A stretch of 36,282 nt of DNA, from positions 1 through 36,282 of IMG/VR virus record IMGVR_UViG_3300027619_000002; one strand, written 5' to 3'. The notes below the pieces were generated by a model. It saw only the letters and a list, made by a program, of their open reading frames with translations. It was not told the origin of the DNA and searched no databases. Source of the stretch: a virus. Within the stretch, counting starts at the first letter, position 1; each line of letters opens with the position of its first letter. The position numbers and the translations under genes were made by a program. This document shows positions 3,473-23,800 of this stretch, in pieces.

Positions 3473-3493
3473 AAGTGTAAAATTAATCAAATG
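3473..3493 (+). repeat. 21-bp direct repeat AAGTGTAAAATTAATCAAATG, copy 1 (contains the HNH start codon)
   Basis: Identical 21-mer at 3473..3493 and 3885..3905, read directly. Both copies end in an ATG that starts an ORF. Confidence 0.9.
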
Positions 3494-3892: not shown

Positions 3893-3905
3893 AATTAATC
3901 AAATG
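3885..3905 (+). repeat. 21-bp direct repeat AAGTGTAAAATTAATCAAATG, copy 2 (contains the HNH stop and the next start codon)
   Basis: Identical to 3473..3493. It spans K-V-stop of the HNH ORF and the ATG at 3903. Confidence 0.9.
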
Positions 3906-4166
3906 TGGCCTTGGACAAGTCTAGGTGACGAAAAACAAGAACTATTAGAAAAATATTGGGTTGAAATGGCCAAAACACAATCTGGCTCATATAATGAAAT
4001 TGAAGTGAAGGAAGCGCAGAAGCTAATAGAACAGATTTTAGTTGAAATGGACGATAATTATGCCAAAACAATGGGCGTTGAATGCCCTCATGGACGTAGT
4101 CAGAGGAATTGTCAAGATCCAGATTGTGCGAATCTATATGTTGTTAGTCAAGTACTCGAAAGTTGA
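3903..4166 (+). CDS. Small Cys/His protein, member of the C-terminal VL-tail family (87 aa)
   Basis: Ends ...ECPHGRSQRNCQDPDCANLYVVSQVLES-stop. The ATG lies inside repeat copy 2. Confidence 0.6.
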   Translation: MWPWTSLGDEKQELLEKYWVEMAKTQSGSYNEIEVKEAQKLIEQILVEMDDNYAKTMGVECPHGRSQRNCQDPDCANLYVVSQVLES

Positions 4167-4192
4167 GATTCGTAAGAAATGATGGATCCCGA

Positions 4193-4516
4193 ATGGCTAT
4201 AATCATCTACGTTCACACTCATAAGGCCACGGGGAAGCGTTATGTGGGCCAGACTTCGCAAACGATGCAAAAGCGCTGGCAACAGCACATTCGTCAGGCT
4301 CTGCGATTCACACTTAAGTGGCGGTCGCGCTTTCACTTTGCGCTCAAAGACTATGGCATTGATGGATGGACCAATGAAGTCATTGCAACATGTGACAGCC
4401 CTCGTGAAGCCGACCGCTTAGAGCGAGAATGGATTAATACATTCAAATCAGATGATCCTCGTTATGGATTCAATACTCAGCCCGGGAATGCGAAGAACCG
4501 CATTCTTGATCCGTAA
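4193..4516 (+). CDS. GIY-YIG nuclease (107 aa from ATG 4193; an in-frame TTG at 4163 is the ORF-track start)
   Basis: IIIYVHTHKATGKRYVGQTSQTMQKRWQQH followed by READRLEREWI fits the GIY...YVGqT...R..qH...E core of the GIY-YIG family. Confidence 0.8.
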   Translation: MAIIIYVHTHKATGKRYVGQTSQTMQKRWQQHIRQALRFTLKWRSRFHFALKDYGIDGWTNEVIATCDSPREADRLEREWINTFKSDDPRYGFNTQPGNAKNRILDP

Positions 4517-4559
4517 ATATTAAAGTTATTAACGTATCAGGAATTAAGGAGATACGAAA

Positions 4560-5024
4560 ATGAGCCAGAAATCTGACGAAAAGAAGCGACGCAAGGCCGA
4601 GAAGCAAGCACAAGTTAGAACTAATGATGCTTACACGGCTTGGATATATGACGAAAATGCGTTCATGGAACTTCTGTTCGGGTCAGAAGATTATGAGTTC
4701 GACTATTCGAAAACTCATCACATGTTTCAGGAATATTTGCGTAATAAGGGATTCGGAAAGCTTCTTTTTCTAGTTATCTCCAAAGGCACGCCCACCGAAA
4801 AACCCCCGATGAACGAACGGGATGCGTTGCAATATATTTTTGCGAACGCCGCCGACAAAGGCGGGAACGTCGTCTTCGCTTGGTCCATCACCAATCAAGT
4901 CCTCGTAACAGAAAATATGTCTTTCAGTCCTGACTACAGGACGACCGTTGATACCATCCCTGGAGATGATCAGAATGTCATCATCAATTCTAAAAGGATC
5001 GCTCATCCGAATCCTTTACACTAA
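4560..5024 (+). CDS. Hypothetical protein (154 aa), last gene of the rightward island
   Basis: ATG preceded by AAGGAG 8 nt upstream. Basic N-terminus (KKRRKAEKQ). No motif recognised. Confidence 0.6.
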   Translation: MSQKSDEKKRRKAEKQAQVRTNDAYTAWIYDENAFMELLFGSEDYEFDYSKTHHMFQEYLRNKGFGKLLFLVISKGTPTEKPPMNERDALQYIFANAADKGGNVVFAWSITNQVLVTENMSFSPDYRTTVDTIPGDDQNVIINSKRIAHPNPLH

Positions 5025-8577: not shown

Positions 8578-8772
8578 CTAACAATCCAGAACATATTTGA
8601 TTATGCAATTAGGGTCTAGACAGTCTTCTTGCTCAATTTGATGTTCACAAAATCCACACATCATTCGTTTGTATTCAGTTTCATTAATTAATCCACAATT
8701 CAGCCATTCTTGGAGGATTGTGATTTGGGCTGATGGCGACAGCACCTTGTTGAAGAAGAGTTGTGTTTTCAT
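8578..8772 (-). CDS. Small Cys protein, member of the C-terminal VL-tail family (64 aa)
   Basis: Ends ...CGFCEHQIEQEDCLDPNCIIKYVLDC-stop (CxxC-x9-C-x3-C). Its ATG overlaps the TerL stop (ATGA). Confidence 0.6.
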   Translation of the reverse strand: MKTQLFFNKVLSPSAQITILQEWLNCGLINETEYKRMMCGFCEHQIEQEDCLDPNCIIKYVLDC

Positions 8773-10433
8773 CTTGATCTATCTCCGGGGGTCCAATTTT
8801 GCCTTAGGGATTGGTCATTTCGCAATTGGGCTTGGCGACGACGCTCTTGTGCTTCTTTGACTTCAATCGCATCCGCTTCCGGGGTTCCAACTTTAGGTTT
8901 TGGAGCCAATACCAATTGTCCAGATTGTTGGAAGATAGAAAGAACAAACGCTGATACTATATCACCATGCTCCCCGGTTGGCCATTTTTGCAAAATGATT
9001 GTTATATTCCCACCCGAGTTTTTCCTCCAAGTGACTTCTTTTAACTGACGCAGTAATCGTGGATGATTTGGTATTTTGACCAACCCTTCCCTCATCAGGG
9101 TCCGAGTTTTGATGAATGATTCAGCAGGCGACATTGGGGCATCTACGAATCCTAGATTTAGCTTGCCAATTACCTCTATTGCAGTTTGTTTATAATGCTG
9201 GTCGGCCATAAAATAACTTCCGCCGTGACGGCGTATTTCTTCACCAAACTCACGACAAACTTCACTAGGCTGTAATGCTGCACCTTCTTGCGGTTTCTTC
9301 TCTATAATCTGGGCGACTCTGATAATCCCTTGTTTTAGATGCGAAACCACCAACGCACTGCTATTCTTGGTAAACCCGAGGTCAATACCCGCCATAACCC
9401 TGTCACCCGGTTCGGGGAGGGTTGGAAATTGATAGGTCGAATCAACACTCTTAGATAATACGATCGGGTCAAAGAAAGACTCAGTTCCAGCGCCCATGAA
9501 CTGGGCGCCGTATTCTCGTCGGGCATTTTCTGAATCCTGCTGATATTGTTGTTCAACCACTTGTCGTAAAATCGGACTATCTCTGAAAACCAGAGTGGGG
9601 CTGTGCATTGCGAGACATGTAGTCCCAAGCTTAAGGGTTGGAGGCAACCCGGCACATTCCGGATTCGGATGACACTGTGAAAAGAAATCGTATAACAACC
9701 CCGTTTGAGCCCAGGGTGTAGATACGATGATAATCTGAGATCCAGGAAGAACAGCGCGAATAGTAATAGCATCAAATTGTTCCTGATCATTTACAACACT
9801 TCCGGCATCTCTGAAAAATGCCGTCTCTTCTAAAGCTGCTCCAACTAAGTTCGAACCTCGTCCCGTTCGTCCCTTTCCCGACGCGGCTCTAACAACGATT
9901 TCGACAGATTTACCATCTCTAGCAAACTCAATTGATTCAGCTGCATCAGCTTTCCCGACCACCATCTTCAAAAGTTCAGGATGATTTCTGACTGCACCTT
10001 GGATAAATCTAAGTGGTTTACAAGCCTGATCCATATCTGGCGCTATGATTGGTGCTGAGGCTACTTCACCAGGTGCCAAATCGTCTAAAGGAACAGTAAG
10101 TGCCAGATGCAGGATCCGTAGGGCAATTAATACGTATGTCTTACCAGCTCTAGCTCCGGCCACAGCAACGAATACGCGACGCTGTTCATCAGTAATAGAC
10201 TCAATATCACCAAACAATTTGCGAGCTAATTCCCGATCGGACCCTCTCAAATCTTCGGGTTGAACGCCATCGTATGCGATTGCACATGCAACCAGTTGCG
10301 CACGACTTAATTTAACACCTATTTGGTCACAAAACTCTAGGAAACTCTCAGCAACCTTGAACTTCGATTTGGTATCAAACTTCAATCCACCAAGAAGATA
10401 ATCATTCGGGTCAGCTTTTTTCTTATTTGACAC
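8769..10433 (-). CDS. terL: Terminase large subunit (554 aa, GTG start)
   Basis: Walker A is VAVAGARAGKT. RNase-H-like nuclease acidic motifs are present: AGIDLGF, FMADQHY and EHGDIVSAF. It lies immediately upstream of the portal module. Confidence 0.85.
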   Translation of the reverse strand: MSNKKKADPNDYLLGGLKFDTKSKFKVAESFLEFCDQIGVKLSRAQLVACAIAYDGVQPEDLRGSDRELARKLFGDIESITDEQRRVFVAVAGARAGKTYVLIALRILHLALTVPLDDLAPGEVASAPIIAPDMDQACKPLRFIQGAVRNHPELLKMVVGKADAAESIEFARDGKSVEIVVRAASGKGRTGRGSNLVGAALEETAFFRDAGSVVNDQEQFDAITIRAVLPGSQIIIVSTPWAQTGLLYDFFSQCHPNPECAGLPPTLKLGTTCLAMHSPTLVFRDSPILRQVVEQQYQQDSENARREYGAQFMGAGTESFFDPIVLSKSVDSTYQFPTLPEPGDRVMAGIDLGFTKNSSALVVSHLKQGIIRVAQIIEKKPQEGAALQPSEVCREFGEEIRRHGGSYFMADQHYKQTAIEVIGKLNLGFVDAPMSPAESFIKTRTLMREGLVKIPNHPRLLRQLKEVTWRKNSGGNITIILQKWPTGEHGDIVSAFVLSIFQQSGQLVLAPKPKVGTPEADAIEVKEAQERRRQAQLRNDQSLRQNWTPGDRSR

Positions 10434-10755: not shown

Positions 10756-11192
10756 TCGTCTACTCCAAGAGCGTTTTGTAGTCTAGCTCGACGTGCTTCT
10801 TGTTTCTGCGCGTCTTCTTCGGAAGTCCGTTTCACGATATTAATGCCGGTTTGTTCAGCATTTGATCGTGCCTTCATTTCCCGTTCGTCTTTTCGCATTG
10901 CTTCAACGGCGGGATCTTCACCAATTAAATTAGCCACAGCATTCAAATCCAATGGTTTAGCTAAATTAATAGGGCCTGGTTTTGATGGTGTTCCCTCAAT
11001 AATCTGAGGCCGCGTCACATCTCGGGCAGCGTTCAAGATAGACTCTCGGGATGGAATTGTATCACCTAATGCAGCAGCTAACTGTCTTAGTGCTGATCGA
11101 GCCTCATCCTCAGAACAGCGGAACTTGACTTGTTTCCCACCATCTTGGCCAAAGAACACATAGTCACCATCATGTTTACCTATTGCCAGCAT
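10752..11192 (-). CDS. Hypothetical protein (146 aa from ATG 11192)
   Basis: The ATG overlaps the TAA of the glycosyltransferase gene (TAATG). The ORF-track GTG start at 11204 is less likely. Confidence 0.55.
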   Translation of the reverse strand: MLAIGKHDGDYVFFGQDGGKQVKFRCSEDEARSALRQLAAALGDTIPSRESILNAARDVTRPQIIEGTPSKPGPINLAKPLDLNAVANLIGEDPAVEAMRKDEREMKARSNAEQTGINIVKRTSEEDAQKQEARRARLQNALGVDE

Positions 11193-12601
11193 TATTTCAC
11201 CCACTCCTCAATTAAAGCTTGTAGTCCCGGAAACCATCTACCCATATGTAAATGAGGCCCATCATCATCGTATGATTCAGGGATTGGACCATCTCGCCAA
11301 TTACACACGGTGTTGCGACCAGGTGTATCTTCATTCCCCTGTGAACTTACCAATTTGGTGTCTTGATCCATGATTGTAGGGATAGGATGGTAAACCAATC
11401 GCTTGGTGCAAACAGCAAACATTCCATATAGAGCATCCATGCCAAATTGATTAGCGGCGTCAAGAGCGCCTTCTTTCAGGTTATTGTTAATCCATACAAG
11501 AAACTCCTCGAAGACAGATAAAGGAAAAATAACCCCCGAACCAATTGTGGCGTCGTCAGAAGTCACCCATTTTTCTTTGGCATACATAGCTTCCAAGCTA
11601 TCCACACAAGGATTATGGAGCGCAATAATTTCTCTAGGTTTGGATTTAATAATTTCATCGAGTCTCTCTCTCGCGTGCTGTGGGCAGAACAAAGCGTCGT
11701 CATCAAACATCACAACATGTGTTTCTTTTGCAGCATCCGCTGCGTTTGATGCGGCATACCAACGAGATAGCATGAACTCTCGTTGGCTTCCCTTGCATTC
11801 GTGAGTACGAATGTCTCCTAATAGGGATCCAATCCTCAAAAGACTTTGGGACCGCCCCGGAAGCCAAGGAGAATATAAGATCTGTGGAGTATATTTGATC
11901 TCAACTTTCTCAACTACCTTGACTTGTTTCTTTTTGGCTGCTTCCCACTGCTCCTCTAGAGATGGACAACTATACCCATACATTCCCCAATGTTTTAATT
12001 TTGCCTTAGTGTCCAACCAAGGCTGTATTCCATGGAGGCCGCATAACCGACTAAACCACCAGTCCTCACTGAGGTATTGACGGCCATCAACTCCACAATC
12101 AAAGAAATTATGATAAGCTCCAACGCCTGATCCAACTACATCGTCATCTACTTCCGGAACAAATGGTGCTAATTTATCAAATATTGTGCGAGAAATTATC
12201 ATAAATCCTGTTGGTAGATCTTGTCCCTCGGCCCATCCATTAACGACTTTCACACATCCATCTTTTACTTGCGGATTACCAATTAATTGTGTGCCAATAG
12301 CCTTAGCCGGATAAGGTGCTGCGCAAAAATCATGACCTGAATGTAACAGTCGTAATACATCTGCGGGAGAAAACTCAATATCTGAATCAATAAACATGAA
12401 ATGAGTGAAATCAGATTTCTTTCTGAAAGTATTAACTAGTTTGTTTCTCGCGCGCGTGATTAAAGATTCTCCCCACAATTCAACAACAGAATGTTGTATC
12501 CCACATCTCGTAAGAGATTTCTTCAATCGCTCCATAGAGGACTCGAAAGCTCGAACTTTCCCGCTGTAAACCGGAACTGCAATAAATAAAGAAGAGGTCA
12601 T
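11192..12601 (-). CDS. Two-domain GT-A-type glycosyltransferase (469 aa from ATG 12601)
   Basis: The N-terminal half has FIAVPVYSG...FTHFMFIDSDIEF (GT2-like with a DxD motif). The C-terminal half has a second DxD context, HVVMFDDDALF. ATG 12601 is preceded by AGAGGTGA, and the upstream ORF stop overlaps it (ATGA). Confidence 0.7.
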   Translation of the reverse strand: MTSSLFIAVPVYSGKVRAFESSMERLKKSLTRCGIQHSVVELWGESLITRARNKLVNTFRKKSDFTHFMFIDSDIEFSPADVLRLLHSGHDFCAAPYPAKAIGTQLIGNPQVKDGCVKVVNGWAEGQDLPTGFMIISRTIFDKLAPFVPEVDDDVVGSGVGAYHNFFDCGVDGRQYLSEDWWFSRLCGLHGIQPWLDTKAKLKHWGMYGYSCPSLEEQWEAAKKKQVKVVEKVEIKYTPQILYSPWLPGRSQSLLRIGSLLGDIRTHECKGSQREFMLSRWYAASNAADAAKETHVVMFDDDALFCPQHARERLDEIIKSKPREIIALHNPCVDSLEAMYAKEKWVTSDDATIGSGVIFPLSVFEEFLVWINNNLKEGALDAANQFGMDALYGMFAVCTKRLVYHPIPTIMDQDTKLVSSQGNEDTPGRNTVCNWRDGPIPESYDDDGPHLHMGRWFPGLQALIEEWVK

Positions 12602-12882
12602 GTTGTCATCACCTCTTTGCAAGTTATTAGTTTTTGGTCTTCTTTGTTCGGCAGTCTTACGAAGTAGTCTCCTCTCCATGTTCGAAATAAGAAACCATCA
12701 AAGATTAATTCGACATAATTGTGGTTGTATGTTTCGAACCAAAGTTGATACATAAACTCCTCGTCGACTGGTATTTGATGATCAGTCGGATCCATTTTGA
12801 TAATGCTACATATAGCTACACAAGCAGATCTCCCTATTAATCCTTGGTCAGACAAGGACCAGGTGCGTCTGGCATGAGTCAT
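12598..12882 (-). CDS. Hypothetical protein (94 aa)
   Basis: The ATG overlaps the upstream stop (ATGA) and its own stop overlaps the glycosyltransferase start (ATGA). Confidence 0.5.
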   Translation of the reverse strand: MTHARRTWSLSDQGLIGRSACVAICSIIKMDPTDHQIPVDEEFMYQLWFETYNHNYVELIFDGFLFRTWRGDYFVRLPNKEDQKLITCKEVMTT

Positions 12883-13211
12883 TTTCCCTCAAATCCTGGT
12901 TTATTTGGCGCTCTTTTTGGTCCGGTATAACCAGGTGGCGCTTCGATGTTCGCGCCATATTCCTTCTTGCGCCAATCCATTTGAGTCCCGTCGTTATGTC
13001 GCGATTGTTCCATTGCCGACCTAGCATCACGGTGCCAAGCCCCTGTGATGGTACCACCACAGGATTTATCATGAAATTGTTGCGAATAGACACCAGAATC
13101 TGTTTTACGTGTGAGTTTGGGAGCATCACATCGTGGGCAGCGCTCAGCTACGAAACAGACTCTCTTCCAGTCATCAAGTTCAAACTCTTGATCTCCCTCA
13201 AACCAACTCAT
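12879..13211 (-). CDS. Hypothetical Cys-containing protein (110 aa from ATG 13211)
   Basis: CPRC...SCGG suggests a zinc ribbon. ATG 13211 overlaps the upstream stop (ATGA). Confidence 0.5.
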   Translation of the reverse strand: MSWFEGDQEFELDDWKRVCFVAERCPRCDAPKLTRKTDSGVYSQQFHDKSCGGTITGAWHRDARSAMEQSRHNDGTQMDWRKKEYGANIEAPPGYTGPKRAPNKPGFEGK

Positions 13212-13393
13212 TGTGATAACACCCATTTAACGAGACACTCGGGATGACCACATTCCTCCACGTTTGAAATAACGGCTTTTTCACTTTCCTCAGGGAAAAT
13301 ATAGCACAACCCAATTTTTCGGTTAAGACTCCTGATTACTTCTCGTTCTTGAGTTAATTGGGAACGACGAACACGTTCTGCATGGTCAATCAT
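13208..13393 (-). CDS. Small Cys protein, VL-tail family (61 aa from ATG 13393)
   Basis: Ends ...NVEECGHPECLVKWVLSQ-stop. The ATG overlaps the upstream stop (ATGA). Confidence 0.6.
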   Translation of the reverse strand: MIDHAERVRRSQLTQEREVIRSLNRKIGLCYIFPEESEKAVISNVEECGHPECLVKWVLSQ

Positions 13394-13656
13394 CGATTCA
13401 TCACCCAATTCACAACACACTCTGGTTGAGTGCAACGACAACCTGGTAGATGTGGTCCTTTATCAATATTATATCCCCATGCCAGTATTCGGTCAGCAAC
13501 TATTTGATAGTCTGCTCCTTGTGGCCGAGAGTAACCCAGATCATTTAATCTTCTTGATACATAGTCATCATTGGATTCGTCATCCCTCCGCGTTGGATCT
13601 GGTCCATCCTGGTATTGGATTCCAACTGCATTCAAATATTGAGGTCTGACTCTCAT
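13390..13656 (-). CDS. Small Cys protein, VL-tail family (88 aa)
   Basis: Ends ...HLPGCRCTQPECVVNWVMNR-stop. The ATG overlaps the upstream stop (ATGA). Confidence 0.6.
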   Translation of the reverse strand: MRVRPQYLNAVGIQYQDGPDPTRRDDESNDDYVSRRLNDLGYSRPQGADYQIVADRILAWGYNIDKGPHLPGCRCTQPECVVNWVMNR

Positions 13657-13925
13657 GATTTCTTCTTTTTGGCTTTTGGGTCTGGAAGCTTAACAGTTTC
13701 TTCTATAGGATTCGGCATGGATTCGGCATAAACTACTCTAGTCCAGGGGATCAATAGATCATGAGCTGCGCCGTGATGGCTAATCACCAAAGTATCAAAA
13801 TCTTTTCCGATTTCATACCCATCAGCTGTTGAAAAACTTGATTTGTGTTCAGATTCCTCCATTGAGAGTGACCTGAGTGGTGGGACATGTCCCGAGATTT
13901 TGACGAACTGGATGTTATATTTCAT
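13653..13925 (-). CDS. Hypothetical protein (90 aa from ATG 13925)
   Basis: ATG 13925 overlaps the GNAT stop (ATGA). Lys-rich C-terminus (KAKKKKS). Confidence 0.5.
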   Translation of the reverse strand: MKYNIQFVKISGHVPPLRSLSMEESEHKSSFSTADGYEIGKDFDTLVISHHGAAHDLLIPWTRVVYAESMPNPIEETVKLPDPKAKKKKS

Positions 13926-14341
13926 TCTGATGCCCAGATGTACGAACCTTTGCTCCAACCGTGGAAATCGGGGGTCCAGTGTGTTATTACTGGTCTAGAT
14001 CCGATTCCAGCCAATTTCAGCATTTCGGCTGCCAGCCCGTGCCTCCGGAACTTGGATTCAACATATACATAATTTAATGTCTTTGAATTATGACTGATAA
14101 ACCCGATTAAGCTACCCTCTGACTCGGCCACATAGATGTTATCTTGTAATGTGGCAATTCGCTTGGATAATAGAGCTTCCCAGATTTTCTGGTCCATATA
14201 TAGAGTAACAAGACGAGATGAGTCACGGGCTTTATAGACTCGTGCTGGACGACAATCCTCTCGATTCGAGGATCTTATCCATGCCGCGTAAACAAATGGC
14301 ATCTCGTCTGGTCTGACCAGACGTAGACTAAAGTTACTCAT
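13922..14341 (-). CDS. GNAT-family N-acetyltransferase (139 aa)
   Basis: LIGFISHNSKTLNYVYVESKFRRHGLAAEMLKLAG contains the acetyl-CoA-binding motif A (R-x-x-G-x-A) in the expected beta4-alpha3 context. Confidence 0.7.
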   Translation of the reverse strand: MSNFSLRLVRPDEMPFVYAAWIRSSNREDCRPARVYKARDSSRLVTLYMDQKIWEALLSKRIATLQDNIYVAESEGSLIGFISHNSKTLNYVYVESKFRRHGLAAEMLKLAGIGSRPVITHWTPDFHGWSKGSYIWASE

Positions 14342-14546
14342 CTAATACCGCCTGACACAGACGTTCTCTGGCCTGTTCACAAATTATGTCGGCCATCACT
14401 TGTGATGGATACCAGCCGAAGACGCTGGTAGCTCGCTTTATCTGGCAAAAATGACATTGCCATTCGAACTTATGGTTATCAAAGTCGTTATGCGATCTTG
14501 ACCAGCAATGCCCCCCTTTGCCGAAAATGGCCTCATGTCCAATCAT
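14334..14546 (-). CDS. Small Cys/His protein, loose member of the VL-tail family (70 aa)
   Basis: HCWSRSH...CHFC...ICEQARERLCQAVLDE-stop. Overlaps the GNAT start by 8 nt. Confidence 0.55.
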   Translation of the reverse strand: MIGHEAIFGKGGHCWSRSHNDFDNHKFEWQCHFCQIKRATSVFGWYPSQVMADIICEQARERLCQAVLDE

Positions 14547-14995
14547 TCGTCCACCTCTGTCACTTCGCTAATTTCCTCAGGAGGAGGCGCCGAGAGAAGT
14601 TTTCGCTTCTCTTCTTCACACTTGGCTTCCAATTCATTAATCCGGGTGAGTTTCTCACTGCTGGTGAGTTTCTCCCACTCCTCGCGGGGACCTTGATTTA
14701 ATTGCAGCTTGGTTGTATCCGACCAACGTCCTGACGCTCTGCGTTGCAGCCACCAGGCAGAACACACCCAATTCTTAATTGAGTGCTTCTTGATGTTCTT
14801 GACGTGATATGCCTCAGCTTTCATTTCAGCATCAATAACATCCGCCTCGAACTTGGGATCTTGCAACCGCCATAAACGAAATGTGGACTCATTGATCCCA
14901 GCATCAGCAGCGGCAATCTTCCGATAATTACCTGCAATTAGCGATGCGAGTAGCGCTTTCTTGATAGCATCTGGATTTGAGTGTGGTTTGCCCAT
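14543..14995 (-). CDS. Helix-turn-helix DNA-binding protein resembling small terminase subunits (150 aa)
   Basis: IAGNYRKIAAADAGINESTFRLWRLQDPKFEADV (HTH) followed by NWVCSAWWLQRRASGRW. This resembles the HTH plus W..LERR pattern seen in many proteins annotated as TerS. Recognised by eye only. Confidence 0.4.
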   Translation of the reverse strand: MGKPHSNPDAIKKALLASLIAGNYRKIAAADAGINESTFRLWRLQDPKFEADVIDAEMKAEAYHVKNIKKHSIKNWVCSAWWLQRRASGRWSDTTKLQLNQGPREEWEKLTSSEKLTRINELEAKCEEEKRKLLSAPPPEEISEVTEVDE

Positions 14996-15192
14996 TACTC
15001 ATCCAACACGTGAGCGACAACACAATCTGGGTGATCACACTCTGCTCTTTTCACCATTTGAGAATGATGCTTAAAGCAATAAACGGTCGTTCCCATTATC
15101 TTACCCCAAAGGCTACCTGAATATAATTGTGCTTGAATGTCACTTTGTGGCCATAATTCCTGCAATACACTCGAAAAATCCGTAGGCTTCAT
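14995..15192 (-). CDS. Small fusion protein: capsid-protein N-arm-like segment plus VL-tail Cys module (65 aa from ATG 15192)
   Basis: MKPTDFSSVLQELWPQSDIQAQLYSGSLWGKIMGTTV aligns with capsid residues 9..45, SYSALLREIWPQTDIYDELYTINQSFYGQVAKDTTF. Ends RAECDHPDCVVAHVLDE-stop. The ATG overlaps the upstream stop (ATGA). Confidence 0.6.
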   Translation of the reverse strand: MKPTDFSSVLQELWPQSDIQAQLYSGSLWGKIMGTTVYCFKHHSQMVKRAECDHPDCVVAHVLDE

Positions 15193-15374
15193 TGATTCAA
15201 CACGTATGCACAAACGCATTCCGGATTTGTGCATTGGGAAATAGGTCTGTACATGGATCTTCCTTCCTCTTCATGATAACACCAATTCATATCAGAATAA
15301 TCCTCCCATCTAATCTTGAATACACCACCTAGCTTACCTGTGCCATCCCGTAACCAGTCATATAGATCGGACAT
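15189..15374 (-). CDS. Small Cys protein, VL-tail family (61 aa)
   Basis: Ends ...WCYHEEEGRSMYRPISQCTNPECVCAYVLNQ-stop. Confidence 0.6.
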   Translation of the reverse strand: MSDLYDWLRDGTGKLGGVFKIRWEDYSDMNWCYHEEEGRSMYRPISQCTNPECVCAYVLNQ

Positions 15375-15654
15375 TTTGTCGTTTCCTTTTGCGTGTCTGA
15401 CTTAGTTGATCCCGATGATATTTACACCTAACTAGTCCATTGGCATTAGCACCACACTCAAAGCATAGTCCGGCAGCAGTTCGTTCATCATATAACCGTT
15501 TGGCGCTAATTCTGGCGGACTCGTTGTGTTTTAATTGATGGTTGCGACAGAAATATTTGGATGAAAGTGGTAAATTGCAATCCGAACAGAGCCCTTTCGC
15601 AACCTGACTCTTTTTACGAGCCCTGATGGCTTGTCTCTTGGCATCACTGATCAT
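15358..15654 (-). CDS. Tandem zinc-ribbon protein, probably nucleic-acid binding (98 aa)
   Basis: Two internal repeats of GLC-x-[DE]-C-x(8-9)-C-[RK]-x-H: GLCSDCNLPLSSKYFCRNH and GLCFECGANANGLVRCKYH. Both termini are basic. Confidence 0.5.
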   Translation of the reverse strand: MISDAKRQAIRARKKSQVAKGLCSDCNLPLSSKYFCRNHQLKHNESARISAKRLYDERTAAGLCFECGANANGLVRCKYHRDQLSQTRKRKRQNVRSI

Positions 15655-16112
15655 GGCAATTTATATGTGCCAGGTCGGAAACATGACAATAGTCTCTTCT
15701 CGTGACACAATGTGACACAAGCAGTCATGACCTGATCCACCCTGAGTGCGGGATTAACTAGTGCTAATGCTTCATGACAAAGTACTACATTTGTCTCCGG
15801 ATTCGATTTATAGAACCCAAGGACGAAAGCCCTAATATTAAACTTAGATTTCTTGCTACGATAATGATAAAATGGGACGTAATCTTTCCACCCCTGCTTT
15901 TTGAGCGACGTGGTACTCGGAACTGTTTCTGTCGTTTCAGAGCCATTAGAATGGCTCTCTTGTGTGAGAGATTCAGAAGGGCCCTTTTTGAAACATCCGG
16001 ATTCGGTCATTAAACTGAGAACTTCCCGGATGTGATTAGAGTCATGTCCATTCTCTACTAGAGTCCGGATCATTTCAGTTCGATTTTTCGGTGATTCTTG
16101 TGTATTGACCAT
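15651..16112 (-). CDS. Hypothetical protein (153 aa)
   Basis: ATG ORF whose stop overlaps the next start (ATGA). No motif recognised. Confidence 0.55.
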   Translation of the reverse strand: MVNTQESPKNRTEMIRTLVENGHDSNHIREVLSLMTESGCFKKGPSESLTQESHSNGSETTETVPSTTSLKKQGWKDYVPFYHYRSKKSKFNIRAFVLGFYKSNPETNVVLCHEALALVNPALRVDQVMTACVTLCHEKRLLSCFRPGTYKLP

Positions 16113-16156
16113 CTTAGATATTTAGAGATCATAAAAAGTTTATCAATATTTTGAAA

Positions 16157-16450
16157 TCACTTCTTCTGTTTTGCTGCCCATTGACGCTGCAATTTTTCTT
16201 CTTCTACAGCAAGCCAAATATGATATGGAGTTTGAAAGGCAATAACTGCTTGTCTTGCAACCTTGTGGGCAGCCAGCACTTCTTTGATTAAATTGCCTGT
16301 GGCTTGATGCATTGCTAGTGTAGATACATCTTCATCGTGAGCAGCTCTCATTGCTAACTTCAATTTTTTAAAGTCATACGTTATACCTTTATGAGTCCAC
16401 ATATCAGGCAACATTTCCGGCCTAACTTGCACTGAATTAGGGTCTCTCAT
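16157..16450 (-). CDS. Hypothetical protein (97 aa from ATG 16450; the ORF track uses TTG 16462)
   Basis: Helical and charged. One of the first genes of the leftward unit. Confidence 0.5.
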   Translation of the reverse strand: MRDPNSVQVRPEMLPDMWTHKGITYDFKKLKLAMRAAHDEDVSTLAMHQATGNLIKEVLAAHKVARQAVIAFQTPYHIWLAVEEEKLQRQWAAKQKK

Positions 16451-17011: not shown

Positions 17012-17051
17012 TCAGCCACACTCCCGGGGTCTAATCGGAGAGTGTGGCTGA
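17012..17051 (+). promoter_or_regulatory. Perfect 11-12 bp inverted repeat (stem-loop) between the RHH and helicase genes
   Basis: CAGCCACACTC (17013..17023) pairs with GAGTGTGGCTG (17040..17050), with a 16-nt loop and a flanking T/A pair. No T-run follows it. Confidence 0.5.
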
Positions 17052-17104
17052 GGAAAGAAAAGTTCCATGGAAAAAGTACATTCGAAGTCCAACAAGGTGT
17101 CCAC

Positions 17105-18658
17105 ATGAATAATCTTATTCGTGGACTATTCCAATATGGCTCGGAAGGACCCGAGGCCTCCGAGTGCATGAATAATTGGATTCAACTACAACGTTCGAAC
17201 GTTGAATTCACTGATCAGTTTGATCAGCAGATAATTGACCAAATAAGCCAATGGAACTGGCTTACAACCAAATATTCAGGGGGTGGGGATCGTGAGCAGG
17301 TAATAGATGCTCCATCCTTTGACACCTTGCACAGTTGGTTGGAAAGCCTTAATCAAATAGAGGCATCCAGTCGTTTAGACGAAATAAAAGGATTGCACCC
17401 AAAGATTCGAACTAATTACCAATCATTCATTGTCGCTCGGCAAGACGAACAAAAACTATCAGCCTTTACAAAATTAAATAACACCTGCAACCATATTGCT
17501 GCTCACGGATTAGTTATAACGACCACTAGCCCAACTGGTAAGAAAATAACACGACACTGGAAAGGCATAGCCGACTCAGACGAATATCGTCAACTAATGT
17601 CTGGAAATCTCCACGAATCGGATGATTTCCAAATGAATAATTTGTCCAGTCTTTTAGCATCGCCGGACCAACCATGCAAATATGTGATTCCTCAATTTCG
17701 ATTCGCTGAGGGGCGCCCAAATATGATCATTGCATGGGCAGGTCTGTCAAAGACGTTCCTCATGCTAGATCTCGCTTTATCTGTTGGAGCCGGCCTGCCA
17801 ACTTGTTGGGGTGATGTTGGGGTGATGTTAAAGGGGAAGGTGGCAATATTAGATTATGAAATGGGGATCAAAATCACCAAACGGAGACTTCGACGACTAG
17901 CTTTCGGTCGAGGGATCACTAATTTTGACAACATTGATGTGGTGAGCTTCTCTCCTGTTAGCTTGACTAGCAAAGCCGCGGAGTCTAAGTTCATGCGGCT
18001 TTGCGATGGGCGTGCTCTCTGTGTTATTGATTCGTTTCGAGCGGCAACACCATCCTCGAAGGATGAAAACTCGTCCGAAATGGCCGAATACCTGGTCATG
18101 TTGTCTAAGGTAAGCGACAAAACTGGTTGCATATTTGTGATCCTCCATCATGAGAGAAAAACTCAGGAACTCACGGCTGCCGAAGAATTATCACATGATT
18201 TCACTCAGGACGCTCGTGGGTCATCAGCATTAATGGCGGCGCTTGGTGCAACAATTAGCATCAGACGCGTTAAAGGGTCTGACGATTTCAAAATCTCCCA
18301 GGGCAAAGTATCTATGGGCAGACGTGGTGATAGTGTCCTGTTTCGTTTGGAGGATACGGGGAATACTGTGCCAGATTTTGAGGATCATGAGGGATTAGTA
18401 ATCAAGACGATTAATCCGGGAGATGAGACTGACAATGCTGCCAAAAAGGAACGTGATTTAATCTATCAGACTATTGAAAACTATGGTCCAAAGAGCTTGT
18501 CGGTCTTGCGAGAAATGCTCCGTAAGCAAAATTGGAAGGGAAGGAATGGGGCCGAAAAGAAAGTCCTTGACCAGTTAATAGAAGATGGAGTCGTAATACG
18601 ATCACCAACTGGCGGTTATGTAACGTCTGCCACTGCAACATTTTATGGTGTTATATGA
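17105..18658 (+). CDS. RepA/AAA_25-type RecA-fold replicative helicase or ATPase (517 aa from ATG 17105)
   Basis: Walker A-like IIAWAGLSKTFLMLDLALSVGAG, Walker B ALCVIDSF, and FVILHHERK (the HH..K motif typical of RepA/AAA_25 proteins). The ORF-track GTG start at 17042 lies inside the stem-loop. ATG 17105 has AAGGTG 5 nt upstream. Confidence 0.7.
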   Translation: MNNLIRGLFQYGSEGPEASECMNNWIQLQRSNVEFTDQFDQQIIDQISQWNWLTTKYSGGGDREQVIDAPSFDTLHSWLESLNQIEASSRLDEIKGLHPKIRTNYQSFIVARQDEQKLSAFTKLNNTCNHIAAHGLVITTTSPTGKKITRHWKGIADSDEYRQLMSGNLHESDDFQMNNLSSLLASPDQPCKYVIPQFRFAEGRPNMIIAWAGLSKTFLMLDLALSVGAGLPTCWGDVGVMLKGKVAILDYEMGIKITKRRLRRLAFGRGITNFDNIDVVSFSPVSLTSKAAESKFMRLCDGRALCVIDSFRAATPSSKDENSSEMAEYLVMLSKVSDKTGCIFVILHHERKTQELTAAEELSHDFTQDARGSSALMAALGATISIRRVKGSDDFKISQGKVSMGRRGDSVLFRLEDTGNTVPDFEDHEGLVIKTINPGDETDNAAKKERDLIYQTIENYGPKSLSVLREMLRKQNWKGRNGAEKKVLDQLIEDGVVIRSPTGGYVTSATATFYGVI

Positions 18659-18981
18659 TGACTCTAGATAAAATCCATGACTTGTTAGATTTCAATCATC
18701 GTAATTATACGTCTGCACATAAACTGAATATGAATACTAGTATGTTCTTATTTGCTGCTTTAGAAGCCCATAACGAATTATGGGAGATTCCAATTCAATT
18801 TGAAGATCCAATAATTGAATTGGAACGAATCGCTTCACGACGCAGTAGTCCAATATGTAATCGGGCATTTCCATGTGTTAAATGTGGTAGATTCATTTGG
18901 AAAGGTGAAAGTTTCGAATGGGCCGGACAAAATCTTGATGGTAAATGGGTTCCTAAACATCCTTATGATTGTATAAGATGA
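18655..18981 (+). CDS. Hypothetical protein with a Cys cluster (108 aa)
   Basis: The ATG overlaps the helicase stop (ATGA). Contains CNRAFPCVKCGRF. Confidence 0.55.
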   Translation: MMTLDKIHDLLDFNHRNYTSAHKLNMNTSMFLFAALEAHNELWEIPIQFEDPIIELERIASRRSSPICNRAFPCVKCGRFIWKGESFEWAGQNLDGKWVPKHPYDCIR

Positions 18982-19361
18982 ATTGTAATCACCAGCCCAA
19001 CTCGAACTCTTGTATCAGTTGTCTCTCGCCAGCCTACCAAAATGCTGTTGCATCATTGCAACAGCAATCCGCCGCCTCACAGTATTGGAGCCATCAGATG
19101 ACTTTGTCAAATCATCCTCAGACAAATCAGAATCTAGTTGACCAAGCGAGACCAACACCCATTAGCCCCGGACTCGGGGAGCAGTATGACCAAGCAATTC
19201 GCCAGATCATCATCGAAGAAAACCGATTAAAATTTGTCGAGACTAGACTCGCAGAGTGTGGTCACAGTCTTGCCAAAGCTGTGAAATATGCGGATGACCT
19301 GTGGGCACAATTGGTCGCTGAGAGAGAATTGAAAATCGTTCGAGAGGTTCTAGATGAATAA
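18978..19361 (+). CDS. Hypothetical protein with a VL-tail ending (127 aa from ATG 18978)
   Basis: The ATG overlaps the upstream stop (ATGA). The N-terminus is MNCNHQPNSNSCISC. Ends ...LKIVREVLDE-stop. Confidence 0.55.
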   Translation: MNCNHQPNSNSCISCLSPAYQNAVASLQQQSAASQYWSHQMTLSNHPQTNQNLVDQARPTPISPGLGEQYDQAIRQIIIEENRLKFVETRLAECGHSLAKAVKYADDLWAQLVAERELKIVREVLDE

Positions 19362-19527
19362 CTATTGGCTCACAGATGAGTGTCCTCTCAGCCTCCAAGT
19401 AGAGATGAACAAGATCATCCAAGATATTCAATTTGCCCATCATCAATGGGACGCATGTATTCACAATAGACTTCTTGGTAAATGTGAGGACGAAGATTGC
19501 ATCGTCCAGTTCGTATTACAGGAATAA
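19354..19527 (+). CDS. Small Cys protein, VL-tail family (57 aa), below the ORF-track size cutoff
   Basis: Manual translation: MNNYWLTDECPLSLQVEMNKIIQDIQFAHHQWDACIHNRLLGKCEDEDCIVQFVLQE-stop. The ATG lies inside the last codons of the upstream ORF. It replaces the antisense ORF 19243..19464. Confidence 0.6.
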   Translation: MNNYWLTDECPLSLQVEMNKIIQDIQFAHHQWDACIHNRLLGKCEDEDCIVQFVLQE

Positions 19528-19530
19528 CTT

Positions 19531-19776
19531 ATGTTCGGACACAAGTGGGTTCAATATACTGATAATGGAGAGAAATGTGAATTGTGTGGTCTTTTGCGTA
19601 TAACCAAAACCAAAACCAAAAATCCTAATAATATATTATACGTAGATTATAGCGTATTTAATTCACCCGAATATTTATATTGGAGTTACATAGAAAATCA
19701 TTTCCTGCCATCAGATACTCAGTGCACCGAACAGCGACGTGTTGATTGGATAATCCGACAGGTCTTGGAAGAATGA
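19531..19776 (+). CDS. Small Cys protein with a VL-tail ending (81 aa)
   Basis: Contains CELCG and ends ...DTQCTEQRRVDWIIRQVLEE-stop. AGGA lies 7 nt upstream of the ATG. Confidence 0.55.
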   Translation: MFGHKWVQYTDNGEKCELCGLLRITKTKTKNPNNILYVDYSVFNSPEYLYWSYIENHFLPSDTQCTEQRRVDWIIRQVLEE

Positions 19777-19982
19777 TACATAGGTTTGGTTACCACGGTC
19801 CGTATGTTTGCGAATATGAGTACTTAGCCACTAGCCATTGTAATAAGAGAGGTCAATATTATCGGAACCGATACGGCTTAATAATAGCATTATGCCATTC
19901 TCACATGTTGGATACGATTTCCGATGGATATGTGCTTCTAACTGATGAAGAGGCGCTATGTCATCTAGTTCTTTCGAACTAA
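19773..19982 (+). CDS. Small Cys/His protein with a VL-tail ending (69 aa from ATG 19773)
   Basis: The ATG overlaps the upstream stop (ATGA). Ends ...DEEALCHLVLSN-stop. Confidence 0.5.
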   Translation: MIHRFGYHGPYVCEYEYLATSHCNKRGQYYRNRYGLIIALCHSHMLDTISDGYVLLTDEEALCHLVLSN

Positions 19983-20344
19983 TTATACCACCTCAAACGC
20001 AGTGTGGTGGCCTAGGGTATCCAGCCGGTTGTTGGGAATGTGGCGCAGTATTAGTACGCCGAGAAACTCCGGCCGCGGAGAAAGCAGCTTTTGGTGCTGC
20101 TTGCAAAACCATCGCTGATCAACTAATTGTATGCGGTAAGCACAAAACCCAAGACTCAGCCTGGAATGAGGCCAAAGCTTGGATGCGTGCTCTCAAAACT
20201 GGCGAAGAGACCGAGAGTGAGTATAAAGCTCTAGCTCTGGAAGCCAGTAAATGGTGTGAGGAGCATGATCCGGACGAAGTCCCGATGCTGCGTATTCAAG
20301 AAGATGATCCGGAAGAATACGCTCGAATCATATTGGAAGAATAG
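19958..20344 (+). CDS. Hypothetical Cys-containing acidic protein with an IL-tail ending (128 aa)
   Basis: Contains CGGLGYPAGCWECG and ends ...DPEEYARIILEE-stop. Overlaps the upstream ORF by 25 nt. Confidence 0.55.
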   Translation: MSSSSFELIIPPQTQCGGLGYPAGCWECGAVLVRRETPAAEKAAFGAACKTIADQLIVCGKHKTQDSAWNEAKAWMRALKTGEETESEYKALALEASKWCEEHDPDEVPMLRIQEDDPEEYARIILEE

Positions 20345-20357
20345 TGTAATATCAACG

Positions 20358-20591
20358 ATGACAATTGAGGAATTGATCAATCGCCACGACTGGGCGCATA
20401 GCGACGGCGATGTTATTGGTGGTTGGACCGAATATAGATGTTACCATTGTGATTTAGTCGCTTATAATCATGATGATGGTCTTCCTTTGTACATATATGA
20501 TTATGCTGATGAACCCATTGGTAGTGATGATCCAGGTTGCACTAATGAGGCAAGAGCCTTTGCTGCATGCCGAGAGGTTCTTGAATCTTAA
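20358..20591 (+). CDS. Small Cys protein with a VL-tail ending (77 aa from ATG 20358)
   Basis: Contains RCYHC and ends ...DPGCTNEARAFAACREVLES-stop. It is the last gene of the rightward block. Confidence 0.55.
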   Translation: MTIEELINRHDWAHSDGDVIGGWTEYRCYHCDLVAYNHDDGLPLYIYDYADEPIGSDDPGCTNEARAFAACREVLES

Positions 20592-20592
20592 T

Positions 20593-20817
20593 TTATTTAG
20601 TGTGAGATTTTACAACCGCCAACACCGCAACATCTAATACTTTCTTAGCTCCTTCGACACCGAACTTCTGTTCTAGATTATGGAGTAACTTGCGTTTCGT
20701 CGCGGATGAGAGAGTGAACTCTTGTTCTATCTCAGTGTTAGATACAGGTTTCCATAAGCCATATTCACGTTCGATTTCATCCGTGAAATCCTGAGGCGAC
20801 CAAACAATTGGGATCAT
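20593..20817 (-). CDS. Hypothetical protein (74 aa), last gene of the leftward unit; possible fibre assembly factor
   Basis: The ATG overlaps the fibre gene stop (ATGA). The product call is by position only. Confidence 0.5.
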
Positions 20818-23800
20818 GCGATCCTCACAACATTGAAATTACATGTTTCCCATGGAGGAGGGTTTTGATAAAATGTATTATAACTTTGGAATATAATGCT
20901 TTCAGCTGCTCCATAAATGGAAATAATAGCCCCCGCGGGGCAATATACTATACAACTACCATTGGCAACTACTGTCCAAAGAGTTGTGGTACCAGCTGTT
21001 GGCCCCGCGGATGAGAGAGCTGTTACCACACCATTATATGCAAATACCCCGTTTATCCCAACATAAAAATATTGTATCCTAGTTGAAGCTGTTGCTGTAT
21101 CACCACCAGGTGTTATCTGGAAATTAACTAAATAATAACCAGCATTCGTCACTGTTATTCCAGTATAACCTATAGTCATATTTGACACCACCCCCGTGGC
21201 AGTACCAGTCCACCCCCCGATTATGGCGCCAGTCAATCCACCCGAGTTGGGAAGTGTAACACCATATGATTGTCCAAATGCCTGTGCGTATCCTGGTGTT
21301 ATACCTCCTCCGCCACCTCCGGCGGGTCCGGTGACTCCTTGAACTCCTGTAGCTCCCTGTGGACCTGTCGCACCTTGTGATCCGTTAGATCCGGCCGGAC
21401 CTGTGGGTCCGGTTACACCAGGGGATCCTTGAATACCCTGGGGCCCTGTGGGTCCATTTGAAGGACCCGTAGCCCCCTGTGGGCCAGTAGCACCTTGCGC
21501 CCCGGCAGACCCTGCCGGGCCAGTTGGCCCGGTTACACCAGGGGATCCCTGTGGACCCTGACTGCCATTTGCGCCATTAGGTCCAGTTGCCCCTGTTACG
21601 CCAGGTGATCCTTGAATACCTTGGGATCCATTAGCGCCGGCCGGGCCAGTTGGTCCTGTGGCCCCAGTGACACCTTGGGGACCTGTTGGCCCACCATAGG
21701 GGCCTGTAACACCAGCTGGCCCGGTGGGGCCCATAGCCCCCTGCACACCAGATTGTAATGTGACAGTCAAATAGGCGTTATTTACTACTCCGCCATTTTG
21801 AGCGGTGATGGTTCTGAGTGTTACTACATCATTCGCATTAAGTTGTTTGAGACCTTGAACAACTAGCAGCTGTGTTGCTGATGTATTAGTTAGAGATAAA
21901 TCTTGTGCTTGGGTTCCATTAATATAAACCGCCAATCCTGAGACATATAAGCTACCACCATCAGTTAATCCAACAATTAGATACGTTCCGGCTTGAAGAA
22001 CTGTGACTGATGAATTACTCGTGTTTAATGTAGTCTGATTCGATGGACCGCTGGCATTGAATGGAATGGTTACTGGCCCGCCACCTGATGGAACACTGAC
22101 GCCAGATCCCCATAATCCACCAAATACTCCGGTAGCACCGGCGGCCGGGCCAGTAACTCCCTGTGCACCAGTAGGTCCTTGTGGTCCAGTAGGACCAGTT
22201 GAACCTTGCGGTCCAGTAGATCCTGCCCCAGCCGGGCCCGTGGGACCTGTAGCCCCAGTGACCCCTTGGATACCTTGTGGACCCTGAGGTCCAGTAGATC
22301 CTGTGACGCCAGGTGACCCTTGGGGACCAGTAGATCCAGTGACACCCTGAATACCTTGTGATCCTTGGGGTCCAGTAGATCCTGTGACACCAGGTGATCC
22401 TTGTGGTCCGGTAGATCCTGTGACACCTTGAATACCTTGTGGTCCTTGGGGACCGGTAGATCCTGTGACACCAGATGACCCTTGTGGTCCGGTGGCACCA
22501 GTAACCCCATTGATTCCTTGTAAACCAGTAGCTCCTTGTGGACCTGTAACACCTTGGGGTCCTGTAGGTCCACCATAAGGGCCTGTAACACCTTGAATGC
22601 CTGTGGCCCCTTGCGCACCCGTGGGACCAGTTGCCCCAGTGACTCCTTGGATACCCTGTGGTCCCTGAGGCCCAGTAGCACCAGTCTGACCTTGGGGTCC
22701 TGTGGGCCCAGTGACTCCTTGAACACCTTGTGCACCAGTGGGGCCTGTAGCACCAGTGATCCCTTGAATACCTTGTGGTCCCTGATTCCCTTGGGGCCCG
22801 GTTGCTCCTCTTGCACCAGTGGGACCCGTGGCCCCAGTTAATCCTTGTGGGCCCGTAGGTCCACCATAAGGTCCTGTGACACCAGCTGGACCTGTAACAC
22901 CTGTTGCACCTTGTTTTGAGCTAACATTCCATACAGTGAATTGAACTTGTGACAGCGTAGCCAGTTCTGATTGTTCGTTATTTACTAATAGCGTTAGAAC
23001 ATCGCCAGAGTTTAATGCCAACAACCCAGTAATAGCTATAGTTCCTTGATCTGAATGATCAAAACCAACTGGGCCCCAAATTAGATTTGGTTGAGGTACA
23101 CCATTTTTAAGAACTTGTAATATTAACTGAATATCAAATCCATATTCATATGTTATGCCACCTGTTACACTAACTCCATATATGTCAGTCTGATTTACAG
23201 TAATAGATGAATTAGTGCCGGATACTAATGTAACATTTGTTGATATACCAGAATTACTGAATGCTACAGTTCCAGTATAACTCCCTGTTGCTGTTGTTGA
23301 GGTGGTTGAGTATAACTGTCCGTATGCGGGAGATATTGTGCCAGTTCCTAATGGACCACCAGGACCGGTAGTTCCTTGAATACCTTGTGGCCCTGTGACT
23401 CCACGTGCACCAGTAGGTCCTTGAATACCTTGTGGCCCTGTGACACCTTGTGGCCCAGTTGGCCCACCATATGGGCCTGTGACACCGGGTGAGCCTTGAC
23501 TTCCTTGTAATCCAGTTGGACCTTTACTTCCTGTTGGTCCTTGTAATCCAGTTGGACCCTGTGGTCCCGTAACCCCCTGCACACCCTGTAATCCAATACC
23601 ACCTACACTGACAACAGAGAAAAACGCAGAATCAATGACAATCCCTGTAGAAACGAAAGATTCTAATGATTTACCTATTGCTTGAACATTAAAAACATCA
23701 CCACCTGTCGCACTAGCTAAAGCAATGACAGTTGTAGTCGTGAATTGGCTGGAATCTTCATCAAGTATACCCGTATCAGTCTGAGACGTAAGTAATAATG

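Follow-up and report, generated by a model that had tools for sequence, protein, structure and literature searches.

We analysed a viral DNA of 36,282 nucleotides (IMG/VR record IMGVR_UViG_3300027619_000002; this whole stretch is called the window), in which about 27% of the genes code for small acidic proteins that have a C-terminal ending in common. The window is a complete phage genome of ~36,183 bp, assembled as a circle, since bases 1–99 are repeated at positions 36184–36282. The ending, [VI][LM]-x-x-stop (x, any residue), is found in 14 of the 52 greedily called genes, compared to 0.58 expected (binomial P 5.6e-16). Such a share of phage genes with one ending, always equally far from the stop codon, is uncommon. 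Seven of the 14 products form a core family, whose C-terminal module of 27–40 residues contains Cys-His-Cys-Cys (CHCC) ligands, while seven tail-only proteins have just an h-h-x-x-V-L-x-x ending (h, hydrophobic), often with a Cys at position -7. The reading that we prefer, and to which we give a little less than an even chance, is that these proteins constitute a new, lineage-restricted family of zinc-clamped mini-proteins, paralogues of one another that diverge fast. Their conserved half would be a scaffold, their variable half would confer specificity, and they may serve as protein-binding accessory factors.

Fourteen proteins with a common C-terminal ending

The shared ending is real and far beyond chance. 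In 5000 shuffles of the last 40 residues it arose 0.63 times on average and at most four times, far below the 14 copies observed, and the strict core motif was never produced. At offset 2 from the C-terminus the [VI][LM] dipeptide is seen 14 times, but only 0–1 times at each other offset between 0 and 11. A polar-tail pattern is present in 2 of 768 genes from 75 unrelated loci, and when an upstream hydrophobic pair is added the count is 0 of 768, compared to 11 of 52 in the window. The unusual copy density claimed in a first-pass annotation of this DNA is therefore borne out by the 14 of 52 genes seen against this background. The six-frame translation has seven occurrences of the strict motif C-x2-[PE]-x-C-x3-[WYFH]-V-[LMV], each of them in frame with a tightly packed open reading frame (ORF). 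Six of the seven occurrences lie exactly two residues before the stop codon; the seventh, in 3903..4166, has a four-residue insert after the second Cys. All 14 proteins are acidic (pI 4.2–6.3) and 57–130 residues long, and the final two residues of all 14 tails are polar or charged.

The codons used for the V (GTG, GTA, GTT or GTC) and for the L (TTA, TTG, CTG, CTC, CTA or CTT) of the ending vary, and this synonymous variation indicates that selection acts on the protein level. That chance, composition or non-coding ORFs account for the ending has a vanishingly small probability. The binomial value, the failure of any shuffle to attain the observed counts and the low background all speak against it. 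Moreover, the ORFs tile the strand with overlaps of 1–8 nucleotides, independent pipelines call them on many soil-metagenome contigs, and the same array is present in a second lineage (L022, described below).

The seven members of the core family are the following. Every ending, here and in the second list, is directly followed by the stop codon, and the bit scores refer to a hidden Markov model (HMM) of the tail.

g3903: 3903..4166, + strand, 87 residues, ending …ECPHGRSQRNCQDPDC-ANLY-VVSQVLES; 47.7 bits; called independently as P0001
g8578: 8578..8772, - strand, 64 residues, ending …CGFCEHQIEQEDCLDPNCIIKYVLDC; 46.9 bits; between the large terminase and portal genes
g13208: 13208..13393, - strand, 61 residues, ending …EECGHPECLVKWVLSQ; 32.8 bits; P0002
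g13390: 13390..13656, - strand, 88 residues, ending …HLPGCRCTQPECVVNWVMNR; 45.3 bits
g14995: 14995..15192, - strand, 65 residues, ending …CFKHHSQMVKRAECDHPDCVVAHVLDE; 30.8 bits; P0003
g15189: 15189..15374, - strand, 61 residues, ending …WCYHEEEGRSMYRPISQCTNPECVCAYVLNQ; 36.5 bits; P0008
g19354: 19354..19527, + strand, 57 residues, ending …ACIHNRLLGKCEDEDCIVQFVLQE; 46.7 bits; P0004 and P0005

The tail HMM retrieves exactly these seven ORFs of the window, at 30–48 bits; the score of the ORF that comes next is 4.8 bits. Their consensus is [aromatic in helix]…C-x-H-x6-C-x2-P-[ED]-C-h-h-x-[WYFH]-V-L-x-x-COOH, in which the commonest upstream ligand pair, C-x-H, stands exactly six residues ahead of C-x4-C. 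Pairwise alignments extend over the 30–40 C-terminal residues. The earlier view that the N-terminal parts are unrelated is therefore correct only in part, since the homology of the core proteins is not confined to the last ~14 residues.

Individual members deviate in detail. The product of g3903, a gene placed between those for endonuclease VII and a GIY-YIG nuclease, has a canonical C-P-H-G-R knuckle, and its insert ANLY directly follows the last Cys. In g19354 a Glu replaces the Pro. The start of g13208 is ATGA-coupled, with an alternative TTG start at 13441, and for g14995 gene callers favour a form of 79 residues that starts at 15234. A close variant of g13390, P0007, ends …VVNLVMND, and the g8578 protein (P0006) is present on 14 soil-metagenome contigs.

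The tail-only group consists of these seven proteins.

g12598: 12598..12882, - strand, 94 residues, C-terminus …QKLITCKEVMTT, ending …ITCKEVMTT
g14334: 14334..14546, - strand, 70 residues, N-terminal W…C-x2-C, then …CEQARERLCQAVLDE
g18969: 18978..19361, + strand, ~127 residues, C-terminus …ERELKIVREVLDE
g19531: 19531..19776, + strand, 81 residues, C-x2-C near the N-terminus, then …QCTEQRRVDWIIRQVLEE
g19746: 19773..19982, + strand, 69 residues, ATGA-coupled start, C-terminus …TDEEALCHLVLSN
g19958: 19958..20344, + strand, 128 residues, very acidic, C-terminus …DDPEEYARIILEE
g20358: 20358..20591, + strand, 77 residues, W…C-x2-C, then …GCTNEARAFAACREVLES

The C-termini quoted in the first-pass annotation were all recovered at their coordinates and on their strands. 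Its count of eight core and five tail-only copies has to be changed to seven and seven: the protein of 14334..14546 belongs in the tail-only group, and that of 12598..12882 was missing from the list.

Within the tail-only group, an N-terminal W…C-x2-C element is common to g14334, g20358 and g19531, which are related to each other; the N-terminal similarity of g14334 and g20358 has an E-value of 0.008. The products of g12598 and g20358 are of one subtype, C-[KR]-E-V-[LM]. For two genes our start differs from that of the ORF list: g18969 has an ATGA-coupled start at 18978 instead of a TTG at 18969, and the ORF list gives g20358, the final gene of its + strand unit, a GTG start at 20256. The g18969 protein has an N-terminal C-x-H-x6-C-x2-C, the first spacing of which is that of the family, and its tail …KIVREVLDE follows ~110 residues later. 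An internal …AECGHS… of the same protein resembles …EECGHP… of g13208.

Relatives and known families

When 1.84 billion representative proteins were searched exhaustively with a HMMER profile, the matches were the seven query proteins, one new small protein (P0012) and Cys-rich repeat proteins. Word-indexed searches with full-length and tail alignments returned only proteins of the phage itself and the L022 set. L022, which encodes P0012, is a contig of 1,057 bp and 66% GC on which at least five small genes are arranged in tandem. Their products end in C-x-H-G-[KR]-x4-C-x2-P-[ED]-C-V-[VA]-x-x-[VI]-[VIM]-E-[ST]-stop, and the copies are again exactly C-terminal. Thus, an independent lineage has the same spacing of ligands, again in multiple copies and with the module exactly at the C-terminus.

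Phages with a helicase 31–35% identical to that of the window (L091–L093) have small genes with similar endings 3' of the helicase gene. These endings are ILNS, IMES, VMES and LLAS in L092, VLSS and VLAS in L093, and the weaker VMEE and VHES in L091. The L092 protein ending in ILNS (12071–12280) is the orthologue of g19746; its C-terminus is …SDEEAICWEILNS, and the two align with an E-value of 1.6e-4 over the last 28 residues. No tails were found in remoter helicase relatives (L094–L096 and L099–L105), which restricts the trait to a narrow clade. The sole relative in the phage database, Virus Rctr16k, has a terminase 37% identical to that of the window and is likewise devoid of tails. When the phage database and IMG/VR were searched with the terminase and the helicase, nothing was returned beyond Rctr16k and the contigs considered here.

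In L092 a protein of 163 residues (14445–14936) ends in CANLKIVAEIMES, which is the tail subtype of g3903. It is lipoprotein-like, with an LVAC lipobox, long stretches of poly-Ser and an end rich in Cys. A g3903-type tail on a protein of this exported kind is more easily understood as a structural element than as an address tag that acts in the cytoplasm. Furthermore, two proteins, one of L093 (5212–5475, MCTNPGCINGEIVEL…) and one of L092 (11653–11856, MKCTVPGTRDCQNPVVKYFVV…), have C-x2-P-x-C and a helix at their extreme N-terminus, so that outside the family the element is not always C-terminal.

DNA-level patterns were searched as well. A strict back-translated pattern had 10 matches in IMG/VR, all of which were discarded as chance occurrences in stop-to-stop segments of at most 25 codons. 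A pattern for CPHG…C..P[ED]C, run against IMG/VR, 185,579 bacterial and archaeal species genomes and Joint Genome Institute (JGI) metagenomes, revealed no further C-terminal arrays and no clue to a prophage or host. It gave only scattered metagenome proteins in which the knuckle is N-terminal, internal or repeated.

The first-pass annotation could not place the motif in a named family, and neither could we. Comparisons of the family proteins with Pfam, NCBIfam and PDB sequence profiles (E <= 10) yielded nothing significant. In PHROGs the core has no match, the best E-value being 0.012 for an N-terminal stretch of one tail-only protein. Foldseek was without a match, and literature searches retrieved no description of such a family. 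The module is a new family of a known general kind, the small zinc-knuckle phage proteins; its strictly C-terminal multi-copy habit is unusual.

The closest likeness is to the Cys-rich repeat proteins. With the family profile, P0009 and P0011 were retrieved from the whole library with E-values of 6e-8 and 6e-4, respectively. The 22-residue CHCC repeats of P0009, P0011 and L086 have the identical spacing, C-x-H-G-[KR]-x4-C-x2-P-x-C, after which comes a short hydrophobic helix, and the same unit spacing occurs in g3903, g8578, g19354 and L022. The repeats of the P0009 type are basic, come in 5–10 units and are N-terminal to an enzyme domain. The phage members, in contrast, are acidic, lack any other domain and have a single unit, which closes the protein with V-L-x-x. 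The 22-residue repeats have no Pfam model that matches them. The module ties the phage mini-proteins to unannotated repeats of giant-virus-like proteins. The module itself, C-x-H-x6-C-x2-P-x-C plus a terminal helix, is previously undescribed and short enough for a minimal zinc-stabilised scaffold. P0009, P0011, L086 (an ORF on the - strand) and L067 are giant-virus-like or eukaryotic metagenome proteins built of C-x-H-G-x5-C-x2-P-x-C-h-x2-A-x2-h repeats, and in several such proteins a nuclease-like domain (…VIVEVDE…FIRFNPD…) is fused to the C-terminal side.

Other zinc-binding motifs are more distant. EsV-1-7 (PF19114), found in the brown-algal IMMEDIATE UPRIGHT and in phaeovirus proteins, is likewise a short Cys/His motif with C-x2-[PH]-x-C. 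Its ligands are C-x4-C-x16-17-C-x2-H, which differ in order and spacing from the C-x-H-x6-C-x4-C of the window. The PF19114 protein P0010 is a weak match to the family profile (E 2e-4 over seven repeats). We rejected membership in PF19114, which has a gathering score of 25 bits: no family protein of the window matches even at E <= 1, as opposed to 357 bits for the control P0010. The function of EsV-1-7 is likewise unknown (PMC7457493).

In MutL, the Cys and His of a C(P/N)HGRP motif near the C-terminus coordinate zinc (PMC10366529). Its pentapeptide C-P-H-G-R is the same as in g3903, and C-P-H-G-[RK] occurs in four L022 proteins. The other ligands of MutL come from the distant DQHAx2Ex4E and ACR motifs, and it has neither C-x2-P-x-C nor the terminal V-L helix. 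The endonuclease domain of MutL, with its distant ligands, spans about 180 residues. We rejected it as a relative: only the pentapeptide is in common, the members have 57–88 residues, and there is no match to the MutL_C Pfam or to a PDB profile, which makes the likeness a local look-alike. The retroviral-type zf-CCHC (C-x2-C-x4-H-x4-C) was also dismissed, as its spacing differs from C-x-H-x6-C-x4-C and no Pfam match was obtained.

Predicted fold and competing explanations

AlphaFold models of g8578 and g19354 were calculated from a 14-sequence alignment, and secondary structure was assigned with DSSP. The g8578 model, with a predicted local distance difference test score (pLDDT) of 80 and a predicted template modelling score (pTM) of 0.54, has helices at 2–10, 13–25, 31–39 and 54–63 and a hairpin at 41–47. 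That of g19354 (pLDDT 75) has helices at 12–32 and 47–56 and a hairpin at 34–40. In both models a beta-bridge hairpin bears the C-x-H, the last Cys lies in the first turn of the terminal helix, and this helix extends from the Pro/Glu to the last residue but one. The earlier suggestion of a zinc knuckle with four ligands and a terminal helix as its cap fits these models and also the C-x-H-x6-C-x4-C pattern, which L022 shares.

As modelled, the arrangement appears treble-clef-like in both proteins. In a treble clef the first ligand pair comes from a beta-hairpin knuckle and the second from the start of an alpha-helix, and this placement would match the predicted secondary structure of the two models. 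The differences are that the first pair is C-x-H, not C-P-x-C-G, and that the second is C-x4-C with a Pro cap, not C-x2-C/H. Foldseek searches with the models gave no match in the PDB or in BFVD. The recurrence of C-x-H-x6-C-x4-C as 22-residue tandem repeats in P0009 and P0011 suggests that it behaves as an autonomous metal-binding unit.

Under the preferred reading, the core domain would comprise ~35–40 residues: an aromatic-bearing helix, the C-x-H hairpin, six residues and C-x2-P-x-C. The D/x-P-E/D segment would cap an amphipathic helix of three turns, which would have the second Cys in its first turn and would extend as far as the C-terminus. One Zn2+, most likely bound by the four ligands, would clamp the two helices into a treble-clef-like mini-fold, whose core would be formed by the i, i+1, i+4, i+5 hydrophobic face of the terminal helix. 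Specificity would reside in the variable N-terminal halves. Gene duplication may have expanded the family into accessory slots between core genes, and its members most likely are not DNA binders but small accessory factors that bind to proteins and modulate those of the host or of defence systems. The fixed position of the stop codon could be due partly to descent and partly to gene packing. If the proteins are scaffolds only, the phage would have diversified small binders on a fixed zinc clamp, and the family would be a candidate source of anti-host or anti-defence factors.

Several points weigh against a zinc-clamped scaffold family. About 25 highly diverged proteins from 4–5 phage lineages are without any C-terminal extension, a uniformity greater than is usual for a structural last helix. 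The aromatic at position -5 broadens the hydrophobic arc of the terminal helix to ~200 degrees, which hints at an extra surface for a partner. Homology between the core and the tail-only proteins could not be demonstrated, as hhalign aligns nothing and the tail HMM gives no score, so that descent of the tail-only group from the core is an assumption. Moreover, g13208 and g13390 have no canonical C-x-H and require alternative ligands, and the zinc binding and the fold are themselves predictions.

A different explanation takes the ending itself as the functional element. One receptor would recognise the amphipathic h-h-x-x-V-L-x-x helix, whose free carboxylate lies at a fixed distance, as an address or docking tag that was appended to or retained on otherwise unrelated heads. 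Candidate receptors would be a hub protein of the host, a protease or adaptor, or a component of phage assembly, for instance the interior of the capsid. This is possible, if doubtful. The offset from the C-terminus is fixed and free of extensions in 14 proteins of the window, five of L022 and 5–6 of L092 and L093, and the tail is retained in phages with GC contents of 0.42–0.71. It sits on heads without demonstrable homology, in g18969 ~110 residues away from an N-terminal knuckle, and it is the best-conserved segment of g19746 and its L092 orthologue. Moreover, copies adjoin terS, terL and the portal gene.

Precedents exist in encapsulin cargo peptides, microcompartment encapsulation helices and the clamp-binding (gp45-binding) tails of T4. 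All of these are short C-terminal elements on unrelated proteins, and microcompartment encapsulation helices have a similar h-h-x-x-h-h pattern. The tails bear no sequence relationship to these docking-peptide systems, and the likeness is one of analogy. Encapsulin cargo-loading peptides bind HK97-fold shells (PMC10960027).

No receptor is known, however, and by eye the tails do not resemble the LAA of ssrA, the beta-clamp motif QL[SD]LF, the SSB tip or the PDZ classes. Hydrophobic residues are spaced as in an ordinary packed helix, and in the AlphaFold model the tail lies inside a compact fold. The lipoprotein-like exported carrier of L092 is hard to square with a single cytoplasmic receptor, and the last two residues are variable and partly set by overlapping starts. 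The more specific proposal is that the tail is a transferable tag which, through a single receptor, directs a quarter of the proteome, non-homologous proteins among them, to the same fate, with the zinc knuckle merely stiffening and presenting it; we consider this unlikely. By analogy with encapsulins, such a fate might be the loading of an HK97-type capsid for co-injection with the DNA, or else recruitment to a host hub or protease. A tag would amount to a new phage signal for protein sorting or recruitment that simple fusions could test.

Among these consensus sequences, the non-polar L-A-A-COOH of the ssrA/ClpX degron was rejected, as the tails end polar or charged. The beta-clamp motif (Q-L-[SD]-L-F or Q-x-x-L-x-x-F) was rejected too, since no tail fits it, V-L being adjacent and followed by polar residues. 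That the ending is a C-terminal degron, through which a protease of the host or the phage would degrade the proteins at a set time, seems quite improbable. It would be consistent with a hydrophobic and then polar sequence, exactly C-terminal on many unrelated small proteins, and with the VLAS and LLAS tails of the relatives, which are loosely like Ala-rich tags. Most tails, though, end with acidic or amide residues (DE, EE, ES, NQ), endings that block ClpX-type recognition, and no protease gene was identified in the window.

The last residues of the tails are influenced by gene packing. In 8 of the 13 tail-gene junctions examined the start of the next gene overlaps the final codons (NNA-TGA, GAT-GAx-TAA or TAATG); in g14334, for example, the next start codon lies inside GAT GAG TAA. 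These overlaps bias the last residues towards Q, E, R, S and D. The polar-polar end described in the first-pass annotation is indeed present, but overlapping start codons (ATGA, GATGA) account for part of it. In compact genomes overlapping start and stop codons shape the C-terminal residues, and their effect should be discounted before C-terminal 'motifs' are read. In L022 and L091–L093 many genes, even such without the hydrophobic pair, end GAR TCA TGA (E-S-stop) with the next ATG inside TCATGA, which looks like a clade-wide context of stop/start junctions.

It is very improbable that the whole ending is a DNA or RNA signal, such as the ribosome-binding site or start context of a coupled downstream gene, or a nascent peptide that pauses termination. 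Besides the overlaps and the predominance of GAR TCA TGA in relatives, E-V and Q-V codon pairs sometimes yield GAGGT or AGGT 5–9 nucleotides before the next ATG, and the conserved last ~14 residues would occupy the exit tunnel at termination. These observations are opposed by the unconstrained third codon positions of V and L, and by non-family genes of the same operons that have the same ATGA overlaps without VL. Furthermore, the tail is kept in g20358, the last gene of its unit, and in g8578, which is followed by a gap of 24 nucleotides. Thus, an RNA-level model covers the last one or two residues only. The CHCC ligand pattern, moreover, points to a folded domain. The phage uses Shine-Dalgarno sequences weakly and irregularly, and a Shine-Dalgarno origin of V-L was rejected.

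Genome context

Contigs 99–100% identical to the phage of the window are present in several soil metagenomes. Its genes include those for a major capsid protein, a portal, a large terminase and a GNAT acetyltransferase. The coordinates of several features are the following.

3491-4516, + (opposite) strand: endonuclease VII / GIY-YIG island
8769-10433: large terminase (terL)
14543-14995, - strand: small terminase (terS; phrog_4102, E 3e-15)
17042-18658: AAA_25 helicase
20814-25232, - strand: collagen-like protein of 1472 residues, with several long G-x-y blocks and globular segments between them
25271-25645, - strand: ORF of 124 residues with a short collagen-like stretch, after the 1472-residue protein

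The proteins had been proposed to be a set of early host-takeover factors. Their genes are spread across three transcription units (packaging/structural, replication and endonuclease island) and are interleaved with terS, terL, the portal gene, the GNAT gene and those for endonuclease VII and GIY-YIG, which leaves this label unsupported. A scan for promoters and terminators was uninformative (43 sites, with 37 expected).

The small terminase gene is ~4 kb away from terL, and family members lie on both of its flanks. The interval between terL and the portal gene is occupied by g8578 in the window and by an endonuclease VII gene in L092. The opposite-strand island, which extends over 3491-5024 on the + strand, contains the genes for endonuclease VII (3491-3892), g3903 and the GIY-YIG nuclease (4163-4516) and an ORF of 154 residues. 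It sits within the structural module and resembles a mobile or accessory insertion.

An ORF of 495 residues (11192-12679, - strand) is without a Pfam match; its start is probably an internal ATG at 12601 that overlaps the stop codon of g12598. At the equivalent position L091 has a gene of similar size (14647-16416) with a weak match to Glycos_transf_2. Finally, the collagen-like protein of 1472 residues is presumably a tail fibre.

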